Source: Oligoflexia bacterium (GTDB lineage: Bacteria; Bdellovibrionota; UBA1018). From it: DNA of 64,000 bases. The first letter of the stretch is position 1. Each line of letters begins with the position of its first letter. Below are positions 15,542-24,392 of the stretch, one piece after another. Where the stretch lies: NCBI GenBank assembly GCA_963758495.1, contig CAVWVI010000003.1:320001-384000 (forward strand), written 5' to 3'. Position numbers and translations under genes: made by a program. The notes beneath the pieces were generated by a model. It ran no database searches, had not been told where the DNA came from, and saw nothing but the letters and a program-made list of their open reading frames with translations.

Positions 15542-16654
15542 CTAAAGCTCTACGCGAAAATTCCACGCTCCATACCAAGAGGCTCCGAGGTCTACGCTGC
15601 CGTTATCCTTATTTCCAAACCGAGTTCCCTCGTAGACTGAGCGATCAAAGGAATAGCCCACTGAAAGCTCACTCTTGAGTTCCTTTGTTACAGGAAACCT
15701 CACTCCGATCGGAGCATGCATCTCATTGTAGTACATGCGATCCCCGGGATCAGGACGATTCTCACGGATGTAGGATTGTTGAGCCCACCTGTATCCAGTG
15801 AAGACTTGGATTTTCTGTGGATTCCCATACGCGATTTCAGCGTTGAGGGTGGGTCCAAAAATCCCTAGAGTAAACATCCAAGGCTGTCTGGGCATCCAAA
15901 TGATGGAGGTGAAAGGAAATCCAAACATCCCGATGAGGGTTTCTGTTTGATAAAGATAAATAAAGCCCGGAATCGGAACATAATTGCTAATTGGATTATT
16001 ATTTGAAAAGAACACCGTCAGCATCCAACGACTTCGCTCTGAGCTGCTCCAACTGTAAAAGGCACTCGCTCCAATTGTTGCCACGCCAAAATCTGCAAAA
16101 GGATGATCGCTTGCGGAACCTACACTGATTCTTCCGCCAATGAGCTTATCGTCTTCAAGTTTTCGGGAGTAAGAGCCTCCCAACTCTACTTTCCAAAGGT
16201 CCTGTGGCACCTCGATACCCGTACCCGAAAGGTTTTGTTCTTCTCCAAAATGAAGAGAGGTGCCGCCCAATGAGAGCGACACGCTATTTTTATCATCGAC
16301 ATAAACTGGCGTTTGAATCGTAAGGTGGTGCTGGTCCACATCACCTGGCACTTGCTCAGGCGTAATCCAACCTCCGTAAACAAGGGTTGGCCTTGATACA
16401 GGGAGAAGACCTAACCCACCGAACACGGCAAAACCCGGTACGGCCTTAGGAGGAAGTTTCGGTAAACTTTCTTTTGCTTCGATTTTTACTTGATCCCGAC
16501 AGTTCGGGGAAAGATCCGCTTCATGTTTTTGAAGACACCACAGAAGTAGTGGCCGAACATCGCTCCCCTGCGCGAACGCCGGATAAAGTAAAAAAAATAA
16601 TCCGAATGATCCAAATCCAAGAACCAATTGAGCTCGACTTGCTTTTATTTTCAA
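15542..16654 (-). CDS. Putative outer-membrane beta-barrel protein
   Basis: Signal peptide, alternating aromatic beta-strands, C-terminus WYGAWNFRVEL. Confidence 0.55.
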   Translation of the reverse strand: MKIKASRAQLVLGFGSFGLFFLLYPAFAQGSDVRPLLLWCLQKHEADLSPNCRDQVKIEAKESLPKLPPKAVPGFAVFGGLGLLPVSRPTLVYGGWITPEQVPGDVDQHHLTIQTPVYVDDKNSVSLSLGGTSLHFGEEQNLSGTGIEVPQDLWKVELGGSYSRKLEDDKLIGGRISVGSASDHPFADFGVATIGASAFYSWSSSERSRWMLTVFFSNNNPISNYVPIPGFIYLYQTETLIGMFGFPFTSIIWMPRQPWMFTLGIFGPTLNAEIAYGNPQKIQVFTGYRWAQQSYIRENRPDPGDRMYYNEMHAPIGVRFPVTKELKSELSVGYSFDRSVYEGTRFGNKDNGSVDLGASWYGAWNFRVEL

Positions 16655-17877
16655 GCCTCACTCTCCTCTGGAATCCTGGTGAATGCGATCCTCAACGGCG
16701 CACAATCCCCACTTTCATGAACGGCTCCTAAGTGAACTGCGTCTTTCCCAAACCTCAGATTCACTTGATCCAGAGCCTGAGTCAGTTTCTCCCGCCTTGG
16801 GTCTTCAAATAAAGACGGGGAATGCAAGGTCTCGGGCACCAGTCCAGTCAGCACAACACCCACGGCATAAATCGAACCTGCGGGTAGCCCCTTCCATAGC
16901 GTTCGGATGGCTTGGATCAATGCGATGGTGTCTTGGGTTTCCATCAGACCACAATGAGCCTTCCACGAGTCCTGCCCCTGGAACCGCACAAAGATTTGAA
17001 TTTTTGAAGCGTACAATCCCTCCTTGCGTAATCTCAATGCAGCCTTAGTGGTGAGCTTCTTCAAAACCTGCAAAGCACCTGGCTCATGACGAAGTTCAGG
17101 TGGGAGTACATGGGAATGGCCAATGCTCTTTTGCTCAGAAACGATTTCTATTCGATCCTCTCCACGAAGAAGATGCCACATCTGCTCTCCAACAATACTG
17201 CCCCAGGCATTTTTCATTTCAACAGCGGTAAGTGAGCAAAGGCGCTCCATATTGTAGATCTGCTTCGCATTCAATCTGGCTTCCATTTGAGCACCCACGC
17301 CCGTTAAATCTCGGAGCAACAGACCGTGTAAAATATGGGGCAGATCGTGCAACTGGATGACCGTAAATCCGTCAGGCTTGTGCATATCTGCGGCGATTTT
17401 GGCAAGATAACGATTGGGGCCGATACCAATGGAGCATTTTAACGAAGAGCCTACTTGATCCCGAATTGCTTTCTTAATTTTTACGGACAGTGCTTCTGCG
17501 ACCTTCACTTCCTGTTGTGTGCCGGTAAGACGACAAGCCATTTCATCAATTGAGCAAACGGCTTCAATGGGTATACAGGACTCTACCGTCTCCACAATTC
17601 GGTTATGGTATTTGATGTAGTTGCCGTGATCTCCCTCGATAAAGATCATCTTCGGACAAAGTCGTTTAGCTTCGCCGACCATCGTGCCAGTTTTGATACC
17701 GAACTTCTTGCCCTCGTAGCTTACGGCAATGCAGCAGGTCGTATCGGCAAGCAAGGGCACGACGGCGATGGGTTTCCCACGCAAAAAGGGGTTCATCTCC
17801 TGCTCAACAGAAGCAAAAAATGAGTTCATATCCAGGTAAAGCCACCGGACGAGTTGGGAAGGGTCTTTGGATTCCAT
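16651..17877 (-). CDS. dinB: Y-family DNA polymerase (DinB/UmuC-like)
   Basis: YLDMNSFFASVEQ, SYEGKKFGIKTG, SIDE, LAKIAADMHKPDG; probable start MESKDP at 17877. Confidence 0.9.
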   Translation of the reverse strand: MESKDPSQLVRWLYLDMNSFFASVEQEMNPFLRGKPIAVVPLLADTTCCIAVSYEGKKFGIKTGTMVGEAKRLCPKMIFIEGDHGNYIKYHNRIVETVESCIPIEAVCSIDEMACRLTGTQQEVKVAEALSVKIKKAIRDQVGSSLKCSIGIGPNRYLAKIAADMHKPDGFTVIQLHDLPHILHGLLLRDLTGVGAQMEARLNAKQIYNMERLCSLTAVEMKNAWGSIVGEQMWHLLRGEDRIEIVSEQKSIGHSHVLPPELRHEPGALQVLKKLTTKAALRLRKEGLYASKIQIFVRFQGQDSWKAHCGLMETQDTIALIQAIRTLWKGLPAGSIYAVGVVLTGLVPETLHSPSLFEDPRREKLTQALDQVNLRFGKDAVHLGAVHESGDCAPLRIAFTRIPEESEA

Positions 17878-17894
17878 GTGGACATCCCACTTTT

Positions 17895-19241
17895 TTATTG
17901 CGTGGGCAATCCCCTCTCGGACCATTTCACGGTGCCTCCATTCATGCTTCGCACATTTCTGTAGCCGAGAGATTTCAATAGAAGCATTCCAGAGAGTGAC
18001 ATGTTCCCACGATTGCATACCGTAACAATAGGAGTATTACGATCTTCAGGAAGTTCTCGAGCCCGTGCAACGATTCTTTCCAGGGGTACATTGATGGCTC
18101 CCAAAACGTGGGCCTCTTGATAAATCTCCGGATCACGCACATCGACGATCAGAGGTCTTTTTTCGTTCTGCAAAAGTTTGCTCACTTCCTCAATTTCGAC
18201 AGTATCAAAAGGGTTACGGGAATTATCAATCAGTGTTTTCAGCATAGAATCCGTTGGCACGGAAGCCACGGGTTCCTTTTTAAGATGGGCGAAGAGTTCG
18301 GGGAAGTGACGCACAAATGATGAGGCATATTTGAAGATGTTATCGGGAAAAATCACGACAACAATGGCGTCTGGTTGATCCTGGATTACTTTTAACGCAC
18401 CTGCCAGGGCCATTCCTGAACTAGGACCAGCAATGATACTTTCTTCGCGGTTGAGGCGAAGGCACATTGCGTAGGCTTCGTCATTTTGAACCTCAACCAA
18501 TTGGTTATATTCCTTCGGATTGAAAAATCGAGTCTGCTTCAACTGCTTGATTGAGCGAACTCCCGGAATATCGTGACCTTCGTTTGGATGAACGCCGATG
18601 ATCTGCACCTTTGAGTTTTTCTCTTTTAGAAAGCGCCCCGTTCCAGTAATCGTCCCGCACGTACCGAGCGCTGCAATGAGGTGGGTTACTTCCCCTTTTG
18701 TCTGTCTCCAAATTTCTGGACCCGTCGTCCGGTAATGTGCATTGGGATTCGCTTCGTTCTCATATTGATTCAGCATCTCAAATTCCGGATTTTTTTTTGC
18801 GGTATCCATCGCTAATGCGATTGCCCCCTCGGGAGCTCCCGGTGCTGGACAAAGGGTATCATCAAGCTCTATAACGTCGCATCCAATAAAACGGAGAAGC
18901 GCTCGCTTTTCCAGCGGGATGGCTGAGGAAAGAGGAGAACGCAATGGATAACCCTTTGCATTACCGACCATAGTTAGGCCGAGTCCTGTATTGCCTGAGG
19001 TAGGCTCAACCAATTTCTTCCCCGGCCCAATTCGACCGGACTCTTCAGCAGCTTTGATTAAATTTGCCGCAATTCTGTCCTTCACCGCACCAAAAGGGTT
19101 ATACCATTCAAGCTTAGCAAATAATTTCGCCTCCTTAAAGGAAACGACTCGATTCAAGCGAACCAAGGGCGTGGGGTTTTCCTCACTGGAAAGCATCTCT
19201 AAGACTGAATCAAATACTCGAACAGAAAGATCACTCTTCAT
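17895..19241 (-). CDS. PLP-dependent cysteine synthase-family protein fused to a C-terminal rhodanese
   Basis: KLEWYNPFGAVKDRIA, EPTSGNTG, GTCGT, GPSSG; rhodanese VDVR..HVLGAINVP..VCNRGNMS..MNGG; SD ggagg before ATG 19241. Confidence 0.9.
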   Translation of the reverse strand: MKSDLSVRVFDSVLEMLSSEENPTPLVRLNRVVSFKEAKLFAKLEWYNPFGAVKDRIAANLIKAAEESGRIGPGKKLVEPTSGNTGLGLTMVGNAKGYPLRSPLSSAIPLEKRALLRFIGCDVIELDDTLCPAPGAPEGAIALAMDTAKKNPEFEMLNQYENEANPNAHYRTTGPEIWRQTKGEVTHLIAALGTCGTITGTGRFLKEKNSKVQIIGVHPNEGHDIPGVRSIKQLKQTRFFNPKEYNQLVEVQNDEAYAMCLRLNREESIIAGPSSGMALAGALKVIQDQPDAIVVVIFPDNIFKYASSFVRHFPELFAHLKKEPVASVPTDSMLKTLIDNSRNPFDTVEIEEVSKLLQNEKRPLIVDVRDPEIYQEAHVLGAINVPLERIVARARELPEDRNTPIVTVCNRGNMSLSGMLLLKSLGYRNVRSMNGGTVKWSERGLPTQ

Positions 19242-19342
19242 TTTATTTTGACCTCCATTGATCAAGCTCCAGTCACTCCACGCATAACCCGGTATGCCAC
19301 CATACCCGGCTTTAAAGGCTTTCCGCAATAAAGATTAGCAAA

Positions 19343-19730
19343 TCACGGCGAAGAGTGGTGTCGGGTGTTGTCTTCCTCTTGGCCTGAGTTGTTTGCCCTT
19401 AGCTCAAGAGGAAGCTCGACAATGAAATTCGATCCTTTCCCAACTTCGCTCTCTACCCAAATTTTTCCACCATGAGCTTCAGCAAGCTCCCTTGCGATGT
19501 ATAACCCCAGTCCCAACCCTCCATAAAAACGTGAATCAACCGCTCGCTCAAATCGTTCAAAAATTCTTGTTTGATCCTGTCTTGAAATTCCTGGACCATA
19601 GTCACGGACAGAAAGAATCGAATTCTCGAACATCAGCGCGCCGAAAGGCTCGTCACGTAAAATCAAAGGAAGAGCAATGAGAGATTTCACTCCTAGGGCA
19701 CGAAAAACCTCAAGATACTTCGGGTCTTTC
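19343..19730 (-). pseudogene. Histidine-kinase remnant (GAF piece fused to HATPase C-terminus)
   Basis: [24 protein letters not shown] runs directly into [33 protein letters not shown]-box and N-box are absent. Confidence 0.7.
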
Positions 19731-19735
19731 TATAC

Positions 19736-21265
19736 CTATTGCTCTCTTAAATTAATTGGACAGACACAAAGAGCATCCGCCCTGGCATCGGTTATCTCTT
19801 GGCCCAGGTCTCTCTTTGCTCGTCGAGCATCCACAAGATCTTGATAATCCATTTGGATTTGAGGAGCATAAAGAGGGGTCATATTGAATGGATTGAGTCC
19901 CTGAGCTAATAGCCCTCCGGAAGTCGGCAAGAAACAACTGAGTAAAGGAGCTAATCTTCGGGTTTTATTCCGCGATGGTTGCTCAACAATAGACTTCATT
20001 AAAACATGAAAAGCTTCACCCATCTTCTCCGCTTTCATGAGTTCTACGATGTGTTTTTCCGCTCCTTCCCCGCTTTCTCCTTCTGGAGCTTCTACAGCAG
20101 ACTTCAAGCCTTTGAGAAGCCACAGGTTAACAGTTTCACAAAAGCGCTCCCATCGAAAATCCACGTCTCGTTCGGCACCCATTTCAACGTTTGCATGCAC
20201 AAAAAAGATGTAAAAACGCCAAAAATCCGCAGGTAGAGTCGCTAATGCTTCCTCAAGCCAGATGCCCGTGCCCGTTGACTTTGAGCAAATTCCGCCTTCA
20301 TAGATAAAAACCTCGTTGGGTAACAGTTTCCAATTTTCAACTGAATACCCTCTGTTACTCGCCAAAAGAAGGGCGGGAAAAAGAGCCCCATAAAATGGAG
20401 TGCCATCCATTCCTAGAAAAAAATGATGTCGAGTATCAGGACTCTTCCAGTAACGATCTTCCATGTTAGAACCTTGTTTCGCCAACATCGAAACTTTCGC
20501 CAAAAGAGAATCGACCCAGGAGTACACCGTTTTACCCGGTAGGCTAGCCAAAGGAATTCCCCATTGAGTATCTCGAGTGATGCAAACATTGGGATTTTCA
20601 ACAAGGGTACGCCGAACTCTCTCTGATACCTCAGCTTGGTCCTTAGCTGGAGCTTGAGCGTGATTCACAATCTTGTCTTTGAAAAGATCCATTCTAAAGA
20701 AAAGATGAGGCTCTTCTCGCCACTCGACGCTCCCTGCACATACGGCACATCGACCCTCTATTACTTTGTCAGATTCAACTAAACGAGCACAGTCTTTCTT
20801 ATTGTTACACTGATTACCGTAGGTTCTCCCTCTACAGTAAGGGCAAGTCCCTTCCAAAAACCGATCAGGCAAGTGATGCTGACAGCGAGTGCACCAAGCT
20901 ATTTTCTGAGTCCCAGAAGTAACCACTTCGCGATCGACAAGGTCTTGGATGAGTTCTTGAACAAATTGAGCATGAAAAGGATCTTGAGTTCTTCCAAAGT
21001 GATCAAATGAAAGCTCTAACTTATTTAAGAGTGGAAGTGTTGCTTCATACTTCGAATCAAGCAATTGTTTGGGAGTTATACCATACCCGTGAGCAACATA
21101 CTCACTTCTTGCTCCATGCTCATCGGCACCACAAAGAAAAAAGACTTCTTCTCCACTCATGCGATGAAACCGTGCACAAACATCCGCGAAAAGCATCGGG
21201 ACACAATTGTGGAGTCCAGGAATATCGTACAAATAAGGCCAGCCTGCACTCACAAAGTGAATCAT
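19736..21265 (-). CDS. Methionyl-tRNA synthetase paralog with degenerate HIGH/KMSKS and shortened anticodon-binding domain
   Basis: ADVCARFHRMSG..CGADEHG, Zn knuckles CTRC/CPYC/C..C/CAVC, CITRDTQWGIP, VYSWVD; HIGH position = GLHN, KMSKS = ICSKS, GKD = GMD. Confidence 0.85.
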   Translation of the reverse strand: MIHFVSAGWPYLYDIPGLHNCVPMLFADVCARFHRMSGEEVFFLCGADEHGARSEYVAHGYGITPKQLLDSKYEATLPLLNKLELSFDHFGRTQDPFHAQFVQELIQDLVDREVVTSGTQKIAWCTRCQHHLPDRFLEGTCPYCRGRTYGNQCNNKKDCARLVESDKVIEGRCAVCAGSVEWREEPHLFFRMDLFKDKIVNHAQAPAKDQAEVSERVRRTLVENPNVCITRDTQWGIPLASLPGKTVYSWVDSLLAKVSMLAKQGSNMEDRYWKSPDTRHHFFLGMDGTPFYGALFPALLLASNRGYSVENWKLLPNEVFIYEGGICSKSTGTGIWLEEALATLPADFWRFYIFFVHANVEMGAERDVDFRWERFCETVNLWLLKGLKSAVEAPEGESGEGAEKHIVELMKAEKMGEAFHVLMKSIVEQPSRNKTRRLAPLLSCFLPTSGGLLAQGLNPFNMTPLYAPQIQMDYQDLVDARRAKRDLGQEITDARADALCVCPINLREQ

Positions 21266-22446
21266 TGTTCATCTCTCCTATAATTTCCAGGTCTGCTATA
21301 AACAGCTTTTGCGATTTCTTTTACTGCATTTACGGCCATTTCAACATCTTGATGAGTACTCGACCAGCCCAAGCTGAATCGAACTGTTCCTTGATCTTGA
21401 GTGCCCAAGTTCTGATGAATGAGCGGCGAACAGTGGATACCAGTACGCACCATAATTCCAAATTTTTTGCCCAGCATCTGTCCCACCTCAGCGGTATCCA
21501 GTGCCTTCAGACTCATGGATGTAATGGCTACTTTAGCTTCGGCTTCGGGCCCATGAATAGTAACTCCATCAATACCTTGAAGCTGCTCCATTAAGAGTCG
21601 GTTGAGTTTTACCTCATGCTCACGAAATACTTCGACCCCTGTTGTTAAAATATGCTCCACTCCAGCCAATAGTCCTGCAAGTCCAACCATATTGGGAGTG
21701 CCAGACTCATATCGCTCGGGTCGGGTGAGGGGTTGCTCTAAGCTTTCTGAATGCGAACCGTTTCCTCCTTCACGGAGGGGTTCCAAATCAAGTCCTGAAC
21801 GAAGGAATAATCCTCCCGTTCCAGGAAGACCCAAAAGACTTTTGTGCCCAGTAAAAGCAAACATGTCAATTCCCAGCTCCTCCACATTCACTGGAAATGC
21901 TCCTGCAGTTTGCGCCCCATCTACAAGAAGAGGAATTCCCAATTCTCGAGTTTTACGGGAAATCTCCTGAATGGGTTGGAGAGTGCCCAAAACATTGGAT
22001 GCATGAACACACGCAATCAATCGGGTTCGAGGATTCACTGCCTTGACTAAGTCGTCAGGAGAAACCTCACCTCGGGAATTACTTTTTACAATGGTAACAT
22101 CAATCTCACGGGTTCTGCGTAAACTCCAAAGTGGGCGTAGCAAAGCATTATGTTCGAGATCCGTCACAACAACGTGATCCCCCTTGCGGAGGTAACCTTT
22201 CAACGCCAAATTCAAGGCGTCTGTAGAATTCGCAGTAAAGATTAAATTTGACGGATCCTTAATCCCAAGAAGCTGCGACAATTTAGAACGCAACCTGACA
22301 AGAATACGTTCCGACTCTTGTGCCTTAACGTAACTGCCCCGAGCTGGACTCGCTCCCCCATGGCGCATGAATTTCTCTACAGCTTGATAAACACTCTCAG
22401 GCTTGGGAAAACTCGTAGCTGCATTATCTAGATAGACCTCACTCAT
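21262..22446 (-). CDS. Cysteine desulfurase / selenocysteine lyase-family class V PLP enzyme
   Basis: YLDNAATSFPKP, EHNA, DGAQTAG, FTGHKSLLG (PLP Lys), RTGIHC (catalytic Cys), VRFSLG; ATGA overlap with the next gene. Confidence 0.92.
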   Translation of the reverse strand: MSEVYLDNAATSFPKPESVYQAVEKFMRHGGASPARGSYVKAQESERILVRLRSKLSQLLGIKDPSNLIFTANSTDALNLALKGYLRKGDHVVVTDLEHNALLRPLWSLRRTREIDVTIVKSNSRGEVSPDDLVKAVNPRTRLIACVHASNVLGTLQPIQEISRKTRELGIPLLVDGAQTAGAFPVNVEELGIDMFAFTGHKSLLGLPGTGGLFLRSGLDLEPLREGGNGSHSESLEQPLTRPERYESGTPNMVGLAGLLAGVEHILTTGVEVFREHEVKLNRLLMEQLQGIDGVTIHGPEAEAKVAITSMSLKALDTAEVGQMLGKKFGIMVRTGIHCSPLIHQNLGTQDQGTVRFSLGWSSTHQDVEMAVNAVKEIAKAVYSRPGNYRRDEQ

Positions 22447-22571
22447 TTTTTCCCCTTTACTCGCAGAACTCTTATTAAAAAGAGTTACGCCGCACGTTAT
22501 AAATGGATTACTGCCTTGTGACAAGTCTTATATCAGAATTTTCAAATTTCAAAAATCAGTTGCTCGTCCTC

Positions 22572-22631
22572 TTCATGAACACCTTATTCATGAACACCTT
22601 ATTCATGAACACCTTATTCATGAACGCCTTA
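22572..22631. repeat. 15-bp tandem repeat x4
   Basis: (ttcatgaacacctta)x3 plus ttcatgaacgcctta. Confidence 0.9.
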
Positions 22632-22658
22632 GATGAACTCGTCTACAAAACTTATCCC

Positions 22659-24392
22659 CTAGTGTGATCTTTTTTTTGACGGAGAATCTCCGAGGATTTG
22701 ACTAAAATCATTCGAGAAAACTCCGTGAGGATCAAAGTTATGAACTACGTTCATAAAGCGCCTCAAATGATCTTCATAGTTTCCCAATTTAATTTCAAGC
22801 GGAAAGACCCAGTCTTGATTTTTTCCAAAGTGAGCACGTCCATGATACTTTTCAATCAGTAGTTTCGCCATCTTTTTATAGGATTTCAAATAATCAGTAG
22901 CTAAACTTCTTGGAAATCCGAGAGGACGAAAGTATGGAAATTCGATCATTACGGCTGGCTCATGAAGATGAAATTCACCTCCAGCACTGGTATGTGCCAT
23001 CAAGGTAGTATCTTCCGCTGGAGCAAATCGAATAAAGATTCCCGTCAAAGGAAATGAGGCTCCAGATTGCAAAAACAACTGCTGGAGATCCACCAAAGCA
23101 TCCTGAGCATACGAAAGTGGAACCGCAATTTCCCAATCGGAAACATACATACTTTGTTTGTCCTGATTATAGAGGCTCGACATCATTCGATGAGAAGGCC
23201 CAATTACATTTGTAGAAGGCGTAGAGTTATGAAAAAAGTTATTTTTTTCAAACGGAGGTAAGATCTTAAGACTTAAATATCTAAGATCTTCTAAAAGAAT
23301 ATTCAGATTCTGATGACATGCTCCATACTGAAGAACTAGAGGAAACGGTTTGACTATGAAACTGGGAATTGGCGGACTGAGCAACGTATTATTCGCATTT
23401 TTGTCAGGCAACTCATAGGTTTTATTACCGCACGTCTTTACATATTTCTTTGCGTGCGGAAACCAATGAATCTGACCATAGTCACAATTTCTAATTGCGG
23501 ACAAAACACCGTTACCTCGAATCATCTCTTTATCTTGCCCATAGGTGACATGAACGTGAAGATTGAATTGTGGAAAAATTCGTAGCCTAATTCGCACCAC
23601 TGCACCGAGCATTCCTAAATTTGCTCTGAGCGCTTTGAATGTATCTGGGTCTGTATTATTCGCCGAGAGTTCTGCGAGCGTGCCGTCTGCCTTGACCAGA
23701 GTGATAGACTCAACAAGCGATGAGAGGACTGCTGTATGATGAGGTGAGCTTCCATGAGCTCCCGTGGCAATAGCACCTGCGATAGATACGCCGCGATAAC
23801 CAATAATTGCATAACCTAACGACTGATTGCGCTGATGTAGCCATTCTGTTAGCTCGTCCAGTGTCGCACCAGGCTCTACCACTACAGTGTCTTTGCCATC
23901 ATATTTTTCTATTCCGATAATATGACGGAGTTTTTCCGTCGTAATGATGATCCCGTCTGAGCATATTTGATGATTCGTGGTATGAGCATTTCCAATCACT
24001 CGAATATGTGCACCTACGCTCACAGCCCGCTTCACTATGCTTTGGACTTCTTCTGCCGTTTCTGGATGATCCACCTCCTGCACCTTGTCGCAGAATGTCT
24101 CTGAGTTATATGATTTAACGGGCGCTTTCAAGCAATCCTCAGGGCATGTCACTTCATTTTCACCTGATTCTGGTTCGCATTTACCGTTACCACACGTCAG
24201 TATTAGGCCCGCACCTGGGCAAGACGCCGCAAGATCATTTTCTGACATTTCTTCGTTTATTTGGTCTAGTACTTTTTGGTAATTTTTTTTATCTTGAATT
24301 TGATTAGAATACGAATAACGAATCGATGAAATGAAAACGACTGAAACGATCAGAACAAGAGTATTTACATGATTAGTCATTAAAGAATCCAT
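22659..24392 (-). CDS. Secreted FAD-linked oxidase (gulonolactone/arabinonolactone oxidase-like)
   Basis: VIGNAHT, VVEPGATL, SIAGAIATGAHGS, LGMLGAV, GRAHFGKN, FDPHGVFSN; N-terminal CGNGKCEPESGENEVTCPEDC module. Confidence 0.85.
   Translation of the reverse strand: MDSLMTNHVNTLVLIVSVVFISSIRYSYSNQIQDKKNYQKVLDQINEEMSENDLAASCPGAGLILTCGNGKCEPESGENEVTCPEDCLKAPVKSYNSETFCDKVQEVDHPETAEEVQSIVKRAVSVGAHIRVIGNAHTTNHQICSDGIIITTEKLRHIIGIEKYDGKDTVVVEPGATLDELTEWLHQRNQSLGYAIIGYRGVSIAGAIATGAHGSSPHHTAVLSSLVESITLVKADGTLAELSANNTDPDTFKALRANLGMLGAVVRIRLRIFPQFNLHVHVTYGQDKEMIRGNGVLSAIRNCDYGQIHWFPHAKKYVKTCGNKTYELPDKNANNTLLSPPIPSFIVKPFPLVLQYGACHQNLNILLEDLRYLSLKILPPFEKNNFFHNSTPSTNVIGPSHRMMSSLYNQDKQSMYVSDWEIAVPLSYAQDALVDLQQLFLQSGASFPLTGIFIRFAPAEDTTLMAHTSAGGEFHLHEPAVMIEFPYFRPLGFPRSLATDYLKSYKKMAKLLIEKYHGRAHFGKNQDWVFPLEIKLGNYEDHLRRFMNVVHNFDPHGVFSNDFSQILGDSPSKKRSH

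Follow-up and report, generated by a model that had tools for sequence, protein, structure and literature searches.

Paralogs of the aminoacyl-tRNA synthetases have repeatedly become new ligases, as in MshC, GluQRS and the hydrazine synthetases. In MshC (from CysRS) and GluQRS/YadB (from GluRS) the class I synthetase core is kept for activation, and anticodon function is reduced or lost. Sulfur insertion driven by ATP is carried out on different scaffolds. ThiF and MoeB, with ThiS and MoaD, and LarE adenylate a carboxylate that is then attacked by a persulfide or cysteine to yield a thiocarboxylate, with a second cysteine resolving the intermediate; the substrates are the C-terminus of a carrier protein or a pyridinium dicarboxylate. 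In each of the YrvO-MnmA and NifZ-ThiI pairs of Bacillus subtilis the gene of a dedicated class V desulfurase precedes that of an enzyme with catalytic cysteines that uses ATP and accepts the persulfide directly; these acceptors are PP-loop ATPases that adenylate tRNA uridine. The hydrazine synthetases (PyrN-C, PDB 9L8V; Spb40, Tri28) use the fold of methionyl-tRNA synthetase (MetRS) to adenylate an amino acid other than methionine without tRNA. Here we describe a two-gene cassette in a stretch of 64,000 nucleotides from an Oligoflexia bacterium (GenBank assembly GCA_963758495.1, contig CAVWVI010000003.1, positions 320,001 to 384,000), called the window below. Its first gene encodes a cysteine desulfurase and its second a MetRS-fold paralog with a remodelled active site, and the two are found together wherever we have located the paralog in a genome scan.

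The first-pass annotation of this DNA had noted the pair, with an ATGA overlap between a 509-residue MetRS-like protein and a desulfurase retaining both the lysine that binds pyridoxal phosphate (PLP) and the active-site cysteine. That observation is confirmed by the translation. The interpretation placed on it, that the pair may activate a substrate other than methionine and load it with sulfur or selenium, is partly supported by what follows. By profile match and catalytic residues the product of the first gene belongs to the TIGR01977 subfamily of PLP cysteine desulfurases and is of a working type. It matches Pfam Aminotran_5 with E = 6.3e-85 and passes the TIGR01977 cut-off (433.5 bits against 377), sharing with members of that subfamily the lysine and cysteine of an active desulfurase. 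SclA (NF040779) is the second-best NCBIfam match but its cut-off is missed (350.7 bits against 525), and there is no selenium gene context; weak matches of the same type include EgtE and SepCysS, lyases of the class V fold, and PADLOC returns only generic desulfurases (SspA, DndA). The open reading frame (ORF) runs on the minus strand from 21262 to a TTG at 22524, and the homolog alignment A2 favours the ATG at 22446 as the start. In A2 the window desulfurase is 47-82% identical to the partner desulfurases of the MetRS-like family, and generic Firmicutes members of the TIGR01977 type come next at ~48% identity.

How constant is the association of the two genes? A scan of one genome per prokaryotic species gave 13 loci with a relative of the paralog. 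In every one a relative of the desulfurase, 49-76% identical to that of the window, lies directly upstream on the same strand, and in all 14 loci, the window included, the paralog starts between -4 and +31 nt from the stop of the desulfurase. The desulfurase-paralog pairing is obligatory. The records bear depositor labels of Myxococcales type, Deltaproteobacteria metagenome-assembled genomes, Planctomycetota, Obscuribacterales/Melainabacteria and Haliangiales, with one 'Gammaproteobacteria' and one 'Methanobacteriota'; the flanks of the last look bacterial (F1 ATP synthase, PriA). The pairwise identities of the two proteins are correlated, with r = 0.85 over the 12 complete pairs (L012 and L014 being incomplete and omitted) and none of 5000 label permutations as high, a value to which shared host ancestry would contribute. 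No third partner is evident. Among the 68 flanking ORFs of the 13 loci, searched with Pfam, no family recurs beside the pair across differently labelled lineages, and flanks are repeated only between L007 and L012, a close pair (3-hydroxyacyl-CoA dehydrogenase, acyl-CoA dehydrogenase and HMGL-like). These ORFs contain no cupin, sulfur-carrier protein, PP-loop enzyme or rhodanese, and no recurring N-hydroxylase or other tailoring gene. No fused form of the paralog was found among the longer proteins searched, which is weak evidence. Prediction of the complex of the two proteins from alignments A2 and A1 gave scores of 0.37, 0.30 and 0.17, on both sides of the mark of 0.32, and weighs neither for nor against the pair. 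In this arrangement the cassette resembles YrvO-MnmA and NifZ-ThiI, where desulfurase and acceptor are likewise adjacent and co-oriented with no recurring third component. Unlike those acceptors the paralog has a class I synthetase fold, with an active site built for the carboxylate of an amino acid.

The paralog shares its fold with canonical MetRS. Over residues 1-482 it has the same fold as the enzymes of Pyrococcus abyssi (1RQG), human (5GL7) and Escherichia coli (1QQT), with Z of 31-32; the profile match to 1RQG has E = 2e-78, and both proteins contain two zinc knuckles. The AlphaFold2 (AF2) model, built on alignment A1, has a predicted local distance difference test score (pLDDT) of 88.4 and a predicted template modelling score of 0.90, with pLDDT dropping only in the final ~20 residues, first to 64 and then to 41. 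Foldseek and a second structure aligner both cover nearly the whole protein, and residues 1-482 of the model align with 5-550 of E. coli MetRS (Z = 32, root mean square deviation 2.7-4.0 over 402-459 residues). Thus, in the model, the whole MetRS architecture is kept, with Rossmann core, two-zinc connective peptide, KMSKS domain and a shrunken helical bundle. By the structural alignment, the helical C-terminal domain is a shortened bundle of the anticodon-binding type. Beyond it the model has a family-specific addition, comprising a last helix (residues 487-498) and the cysteine tail. By their Atlas features, residues 372-509 come closest to Anticodon_3 clusters (0.87), a sub-threshold score that serves as a lead only.

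In its sequence the paralog departs from canonical MetRS in several respects. Pfam tRNA-synt_1g covers residues 4-385 (E = 4.5e-83), and the only other Pfam domain is tRNA-synt_1, so that no PP-loop domain is present; PADLOC gives no match and no catalogued defence system. The metG cut-offs are missed, with 259.9 bits against 336.35 for TIGR00398 and 260.3 against 587 for NF001100. The HIGH slot is occupied by PGLHN and the KMSKS slot by (I/V)CSKS, so that neither signature is intact and only one histidine and the second lysine are retained. The motifs quoted at first pass (GLHN, ICSKS, GMD, DFRW and the tail ALCVCPINLREQ) are all in place, with GMD at residues 285-287, DFRW at 369-372 and the tail at 498-509. 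Equating HIGH with GLHN depends on the reference chosen: it holds against human HLGN, but alignment with HAGH of P. abyssi gives PGLH instead. The claim that the protein keeps the MetRS catalytic fold and zinc knuckles is borne out, whereas that of a region after DFRW of about 140 residues with no anticodon-binding motif requires qualification. The length is right (137 residues) and the sequence determinants of anticodon recognition are lost, yet the helical anticodon-type fold remains. In the 1p7p alignment E. coli Asn391 and Arg395 fall at unconserved positions, and a deletion removes the stretch that contains Trp461; these three we take to be the residues that recognize the CAU anticodon. 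To this are added the CxCP tail and the invariable desulfurase neighbour. The features of the cassette are collected in Table 1.

Table 1. Features of the desulfurase-paralog cassette, in window coordinates
Feature	Coordinates	Strand	Remarks
Class V PLP cysteine desulfurase, TIGR01977 (EF2568) subfamily, 394 aa	21262..22446	-	First gene of cassette
PLP-binding Lys202 (TGHKSLL)	21841..21843	-	Translation; invariant in 28/28 partner desulfurases
Persulfide-forming Cys339 (RTGIHC)	21430..21432	-	Translation; invariant in 28/28 partner desulfurases
ATGA overlap, desulfurase stop and paralog start	21262..21265	-	Stop-to-start distance -4 to +31 nt in all 14 loci
MetRS-fold paralog, 509 aa	19736..21265	-	Second gene of cassette; Pfam tRNA-synt_1g
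GLHN replacing HIGH, residues 17-20, His19 conserved	21206..21217	-	LH[NQSR] in 66/70 full-length members
Connective-peptide insertion, two zinc knuckles, 8 Cys, residues 125-176	20738..20893	-	8-Cys pattern in 70/70
Lys257 at E. coli MetRS Tyr260 position (side-chain pocket)	20495..20497	-	1p7p alignment; WVDSLLAK-type motif in 70/70
Tyr292 at E. coli MetRS His301 position (side-chain pocket)	20390..20392	-	1p7p alignment; invariant in A1
ICSKS replacing KMSKS, residues 326-330	20276..20290	-	Cys327 for Met; second Lys kept
Family-specific C-terminal tail RADALCVCPINLREQ, residues 495-509	19739..19783	-	R-A-D-x-L-C-x-C-P in 68/70

The sequences indicate that these paralogs are a discrete, small and previously undescribed family and not decaying copies of a synthetase. 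A search of 5.8 billion clustered proteins returned 78 homologs at 39-83% identity, mostly full length, after which there is a drop to ordinary MetRS (at most 36% identity, ~76% query coverage) bearing Anticodon_3 or tRNA_bind domains. In a profile search of 1.84 billion representatives at 50% identity, about nine clusters scoring at least 390 bits belong to the family; below them come a small sister group and then the mass of true MetRS at ~300 bits. Conservation was counted over the 70 members of at least 470 residues, taken as full length. The KMSKS slot with its cysteine (G-x-[IV]-C-[STA]-[KR]-S), the pocket lysine motif (W-[VA]-D-[SA]-L-L-[AG]-K), D-[DE]-H-G-x-R and the eight-cysteine knuckle pattern are present in all 70, and the tail motif in all but two. 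The four sequences lacking L-H-[NQSR] are N-terminally truncated. Within alignment A1 (30 members) Trp9, Tyr11, Asp48, Trp250, Lys257, Asp287 and Tyr292 are invariant, as are Cys327, Cys444, Arg495, Cys502, Pro503 and Glu508. Conservation of this extent across 70 full-length proteins excludes decay. Two copies look different. P0238, a relative of the Planctomycetota-type members, lacks most zinc-knuckle cysteines, the WPY motif and the SKS lysine, and is probably a degenerating copy that contrasts with the conserved family. At L012:6875-8403 the MetRS-like gene is in pieces of 136 and 378 aa with the upstream desulfurase intact, from either a frameshift or an assembly error.

What has changed in the active site? 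Residues were mapped by profile alignment onto the P. abyssi, human and E. coli (1p7p) enzymes. Kept are E. coli Tyr15 (paralog Tyr11), Asp52, which binds the amino group (Asp48), His54-Gly55 (His50-Gly51), Trp253 (Trp250), the ribose Gly-x-Asp residues Gly294 and Asp296 (Gly285 and Asp287) and Ser334-Lys335-Ser336 of KMSKS (Ser328-Lys329-Ser330). Changed, in addition to HIGH, are Leu13 to Trp9, Ala256 to Ser253, Tyr260 to Lys257, Lys295 to Met286, Ile297 to Gly288, His301 to Tyr292 and Lys332-Met333 to Ile326-Cys327. The methionine pocket is formed by Leu13, Tyr15, Asp52, Trp253, Ala256, Tyr260, Ile297 and His301, and an engineered variant, NLL, switches substrate through Leu13, Tyr260 and His301, according to a preprint (bioRxiv 10.64898/2026.10.25.761628). 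By that definition three of the eight positions are kept in the paralog and five replaced, and all three NLL positions are replaced across the family by residues that are themselves invariant. Since the amino-group aspartate is kept, the substrate would still be an alpha-amino acid, and the new pocket residues suggest that a polar or anionic group occupies the place of the methionine sulfur.

Comparison with the hydrazine synthetases is instructive on this point. In PyrN, Arg390 and Arg425 of the MetRS-like domain hold the gamma-carboxylate of glutamate, and Arg425 lies five residues past the ribose-binding Asp420. It would thus correspond to His301 of E. coli MetRS, likewise five past Asp296, and so to Tyr292 here. 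PyrN-C also keeps the zinc knuckles and the helical bundle and places cationic residues in the side-chain pocket, and a PyrN-type structure is at rank 17 in the Foldseek list for the paralog model. The differences are substantial, however. PyrN retains HLGH and has KFSTG in place of KMSKS, it depends on a cupin domain or partner and on N-hydroxylated lysine, and no cupin is found in the flanks of our loci; moreover hydrazine synthesis involves no sulfur enzyme. The profile similarity of the paralog to PyrN is 116 bits, compared with 268 to true MetRS, and it is therefore best regarded as an independent offshoot. MshC and GluQRS differ further, having other synthetase origins and no desulfurase partner, loop cysteine or cysteine tail.

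The sister group bears on the order of these changes. Among these metagenomic proteins P0236 and P0237 are 30-33% and P0081 27% identical to the window paralog. All three share G-I-H-N and x-C-S-K-S; they end in a conserved cysteine tail of their own (LGEYCExW), retain GKDN and have no pocket lysine. The variants of HIGH and KMSKS thus predate the change in the pocket. P0236 passes the TIGR00398 cut-off with 389 bits against 336, and the other two fail with 316 and 261. The group may be a MetRS lineage with a cysteine in its KMSKS loop, or a second repurposed family. A metagenome scan with P0236 returned nothing, and one with alignment A4 returned two loci at 28-29% identity that are presumed to be ordinary MetRS.

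The cassette is thinly scattered. The paralog is absent from all 60 sampled relatives of the host (36 of the same family and 24 of the same order) and from 400 other sampled genomes of the host phylum, and it occurs in two of 60 relatives of one other carrier. This sparse distribution among relatives marks a mobile accessory cassette, a two-gene operon complete in itself that moves horizontally. Its neighbours in the window vary as well, with the CysK-rhodanese gene found in 0/25 relatives and the FAD oxidase in 2/25. An earlier description of the surroundings as accessory DNA therefore holds by distribution but not by composition, with a GC fraction of 0.457 for the cassette against 0.42 for the window. 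The Oligoflexia genome, 92% complete, contains a separate metG-type gene of a different subtype, 20% identical to the paralog, which scores 436.7 bits on TIGR00398 (cut-off 336) and falls just below the cut-off of the PRK12267 equivalog model (579.5 against 598). A separate and better metG-type match is present in five of five other carriers, above the cut-off in four and split at contig ends in the fifth. Among the host and the five carriers examined the paralog is never the sole MetRS. The first-pass annotation had proposed two results that would overturn its view, a sole MetRS charging tRNA-Met or motif changes confined to one unlinked copy. Neither holds: we find a metG-type gene in addition to the paralog in each genome examined, and a conserved family in which desulfurase adjacency, the GLHN-type and xCSKS motifs and the CxCP tail are general.

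We propose that the paralog is an adenylase for an amino acid other than methionine that receives persulfide from the desulfurase through its own cysteines. This is the explanation that best accommodates the sequences, and we put its probability at roughly 0.4. The paralog would bind ATP and adenylate the alpha-carboxylate of the amino acid. The desulfurase would form a persulfide on Cys339 and hand it to the tail cysteines of the paralog, to Cys327, or to both. The relayed sulfur could then attack the acyl-adenylate in the paralog active site, a second cysteine resolving the intermediate, and the product would be an acyl-persulfide, a thiocarboxylate or a thiol-linked compound. The relay is suggested by the combination of obligate pairing with an intact desulfurase, a conserved cysteine in the mobile KMSKS loop and a conserved CxCP tail that is predicted to be flexible; the use of ATP, the passage of sulfur and the nature of substrate and product we infer. 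The chemistry would be that of ThiF/MoeB and LarE on a different fold from their E1-like and PP-loop enzymes, and, unlike the ThiF/MoeB systems, the cassette has no ThiS- or MoaD-like gene in its flanks. A more exact version, in which the CxCP tail swings to feed a MetRS-derived adenylase together with the loop cysteine, and a free amino acid is turned into its thiocarboxylate or acyl-persulfide independently of tRNA, is a doubtful but attractive extension. If true, sulfur insertion would for the first time be seen on a class I aminoacyl-tRNA synthetase fold, in a two-gene cassette that has spread between bacterial phyla. Several observations weigh against the relay-fed adenylase. The loss of the first histidine and glycine of HIGH and of the first lysine of KMSKS means that ATP binding is not assured, and a sister protein that passes the metG cut-off shows that GIHN and xCSKS alone are no proof of lost MetRS activity. 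The connective peptide with its zinc knuckles and the helical bundle are equally compatible with tRNA binding. The flanks encode neither an enzyme that would consume a thiocarboxylate nor a third gene that recurs, and the cysteine that follows LHN (Cys21) is present in 62 of 70 members and so is not universal.

The retention of the MetRS architecture raises the question of whether tRNA is the substrate. The paralog might be a tRNA-directed enzyme that, with the desulfurase, thiolates a bound tRNA or converts an aminoacyl-tRNA, after the manner of SepRS/SepCysS or of a desulfurase-thiouridylase pair. Both zinc knuckles are present in all 70 members, the helical domain superposes on the anticodon-binding domain and the Atlas lead points the same way; the lack of a recurring third gene would suit a ubiquitous substrate such as tRNA, and Bacillus has two-gene desulfurase-thiolase operons for tRNA. 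We nevertheless consider this unlikely. The positions of Asn391 and Arg395 are unconserved and the Trp461 segment is gone, PyrN-C retains zinc knuckles and a helical bundle without using tRNA, and no tRNA gene or T-box accompanies the operon, in and upstream of which Rfam is empty. The active site of a MetRS faces the 3' end of the tRNA, and we know of no thiolation there. A quite different proposal is that no adenylation occurs. The paralog would then accept sulfur or act as an activator in the way of SufE, SufU or CsdE, or carry an iron-sulfur or other metal centre on its non-knuckle cysteines (Cys327, Cys444, Cys500 and Cys502), with the MetRS fold a mere scaffold or a ligand sensor. Both signatures, HIGH and KMSKS, are altered, and four cysteines are specific to the family, Cys327 in 70/70, Cys444 invariant in A1 and the tail CxC in 68/70. 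Cluster-dependent sulfur insertion at three-cysteine [4Fe-4S] sites occurs in TtuA, NcsA and some LarE. Yet Asp48, Gly285-x-Asp287 and Ser-Lys-Ser are conserved and the remodelled pocket residues Lys257, Tyr292 and Trp9 are invariant, none of which a scaffold would need, and known desulfurase acceptors are small proteins, so that this too we judge improbable.

The remaining alternatives concern the identity of the first enzyme or of the substrate. Were there no sulfur relay, the PLP enzyme could be a lyase or transaminase that makes or consumes an amino acid which the paralog ligates to an acceptor, in the manner of MshC or the hydrazine synthetases, the two enzymes catalysing successive steps of a small-molecule pathway. 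The weak matches to EgtE and SepCysS show that the class V fold includes lyases, the MetRS-like domains of hydrazine synthetases are amino-acid ligases and the rewired pocket shows that the substrate is not methionine. However, Lys202 and the Cys339 loop are invariant and the desulfurase subfamily cut-off is passed, the flanks contain no recurring cupin, N-hydroxylase or tailoring gene, and the conserved cysteines of the paralog would be left unexplained; the chance of this is small. A selenium variant, with a selenocysteine lyase as first enzyme and the pair trafficking selenium, draws on the SclA match and on the selenium context in which one paper (PMC2276186) reportedly discusses TIGR01977. 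The SclA score is below its cut-off, and no selD exceeds the cut-off in the host genome at 92% completeness; selD is present in two of five other carriers and is never adjacent to the cassette. Loading of selenium by way of selenophosphate is therefore unlikely in general, and the variant as a whole is very improbable. Lastly, the paralog could be a second true MetRS, drug-resistant or stress-specific, or a copy in decay. The MetRS fold is present throughout, and a sister protein with similar motif variants reaches the metG cut-off. Against this, the paralog scores 260 bits, well under cut-offs of 336 and 587; five of the eight methionine-pocket residues are replaced, and the anticodon determinants have been lost. 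A desulfurase always accompanies the paralog, and decay is at odds with conservation over 70 full-length members. Hardly any weight attaches to this reading.

The literature covered, which did not extend to subscription journals, yielded no account of a MetRS-like protein coupled to a desulfurase; the work found under the term 'MetRS-like' concerns hydrazine and N-N bond enzymes or metallophore mining. The family is rare and tightly conserved, and no other synthetase paralog that we have found is tied in this way to a cysteine desulfurase. In kind it brings together a repurposed synthetase paralog and a dedicated pair of desulfurase and putative acceptor, and its chemistry may well be new for the fold. 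If the proposed chemistry is correct, ATP-driven sulfur insertion would gain a third scaffold, after the E1-like and PP-loop enzymes, and a natural origin of amino-acid thiocarboxylates or persulfides would be identified. Should the chemistry prove to be another, the two genes are still a compact target with Cys327, Cys500/502, Lys257 and Tyr292 as candidate catalytic residues.

Some features of the surroundings are recorded here. Downstream of the cassette in the window, at 17895-19328 on the minus strand, is a 477-aa CysK/CysM-like cysteine synthase with a C-terminal rhodanese domain, below the equivalog cut-offs, whose ORF overlaps the start of the following DinB/Pol IV ORF (16651-18018) by ~120 nt. 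This fusion was considered as a third component and rejected, since none of the 13 other loci has it in its flanks. Between it and the cassette lies a 115-aa ORF (19343-19690, minus strand) in which only the C-terminal end of a histidine-kinase ATPase domain is represented (positions 38-110 of the HATPase_c profile); it seems to have been left behind by rearrangement or insertion. At one other locus (L009:1490-3018, minus strand), and at no further one, a second class V enzyme of the NifS/IscS type and an IscA-type Fe-S assembly gene adjoin the cassette divergently.

A scan of 19200-22800 for the sigma-70 consensus gave no site, and upstream of the desulfurase Rfam gave only a chance-level match (E = 0.93) and no riboswitch or T-box. 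Between the stop of the FAD oxidase and the start of the desulfurase, at 22572-22631, are four tandem units of 15 bp (TRF consensus TTCATGAACACCTTA, 97% matches), each containing the 8-bp palindrome TTCATGAA. The unit has no other copy in the window when up to one mismatch is allowed, and none of the 13 related loci contains it. By its sequence the array may be a set of operators. In the whole window the only Rfam match at the gathering threshold is a group II intron, D1-D4 (RF02005, 11008-11252, minus strand, 118 bits, E = 6.5e-33), which places a mobile element at ~9 kb from the cassette.

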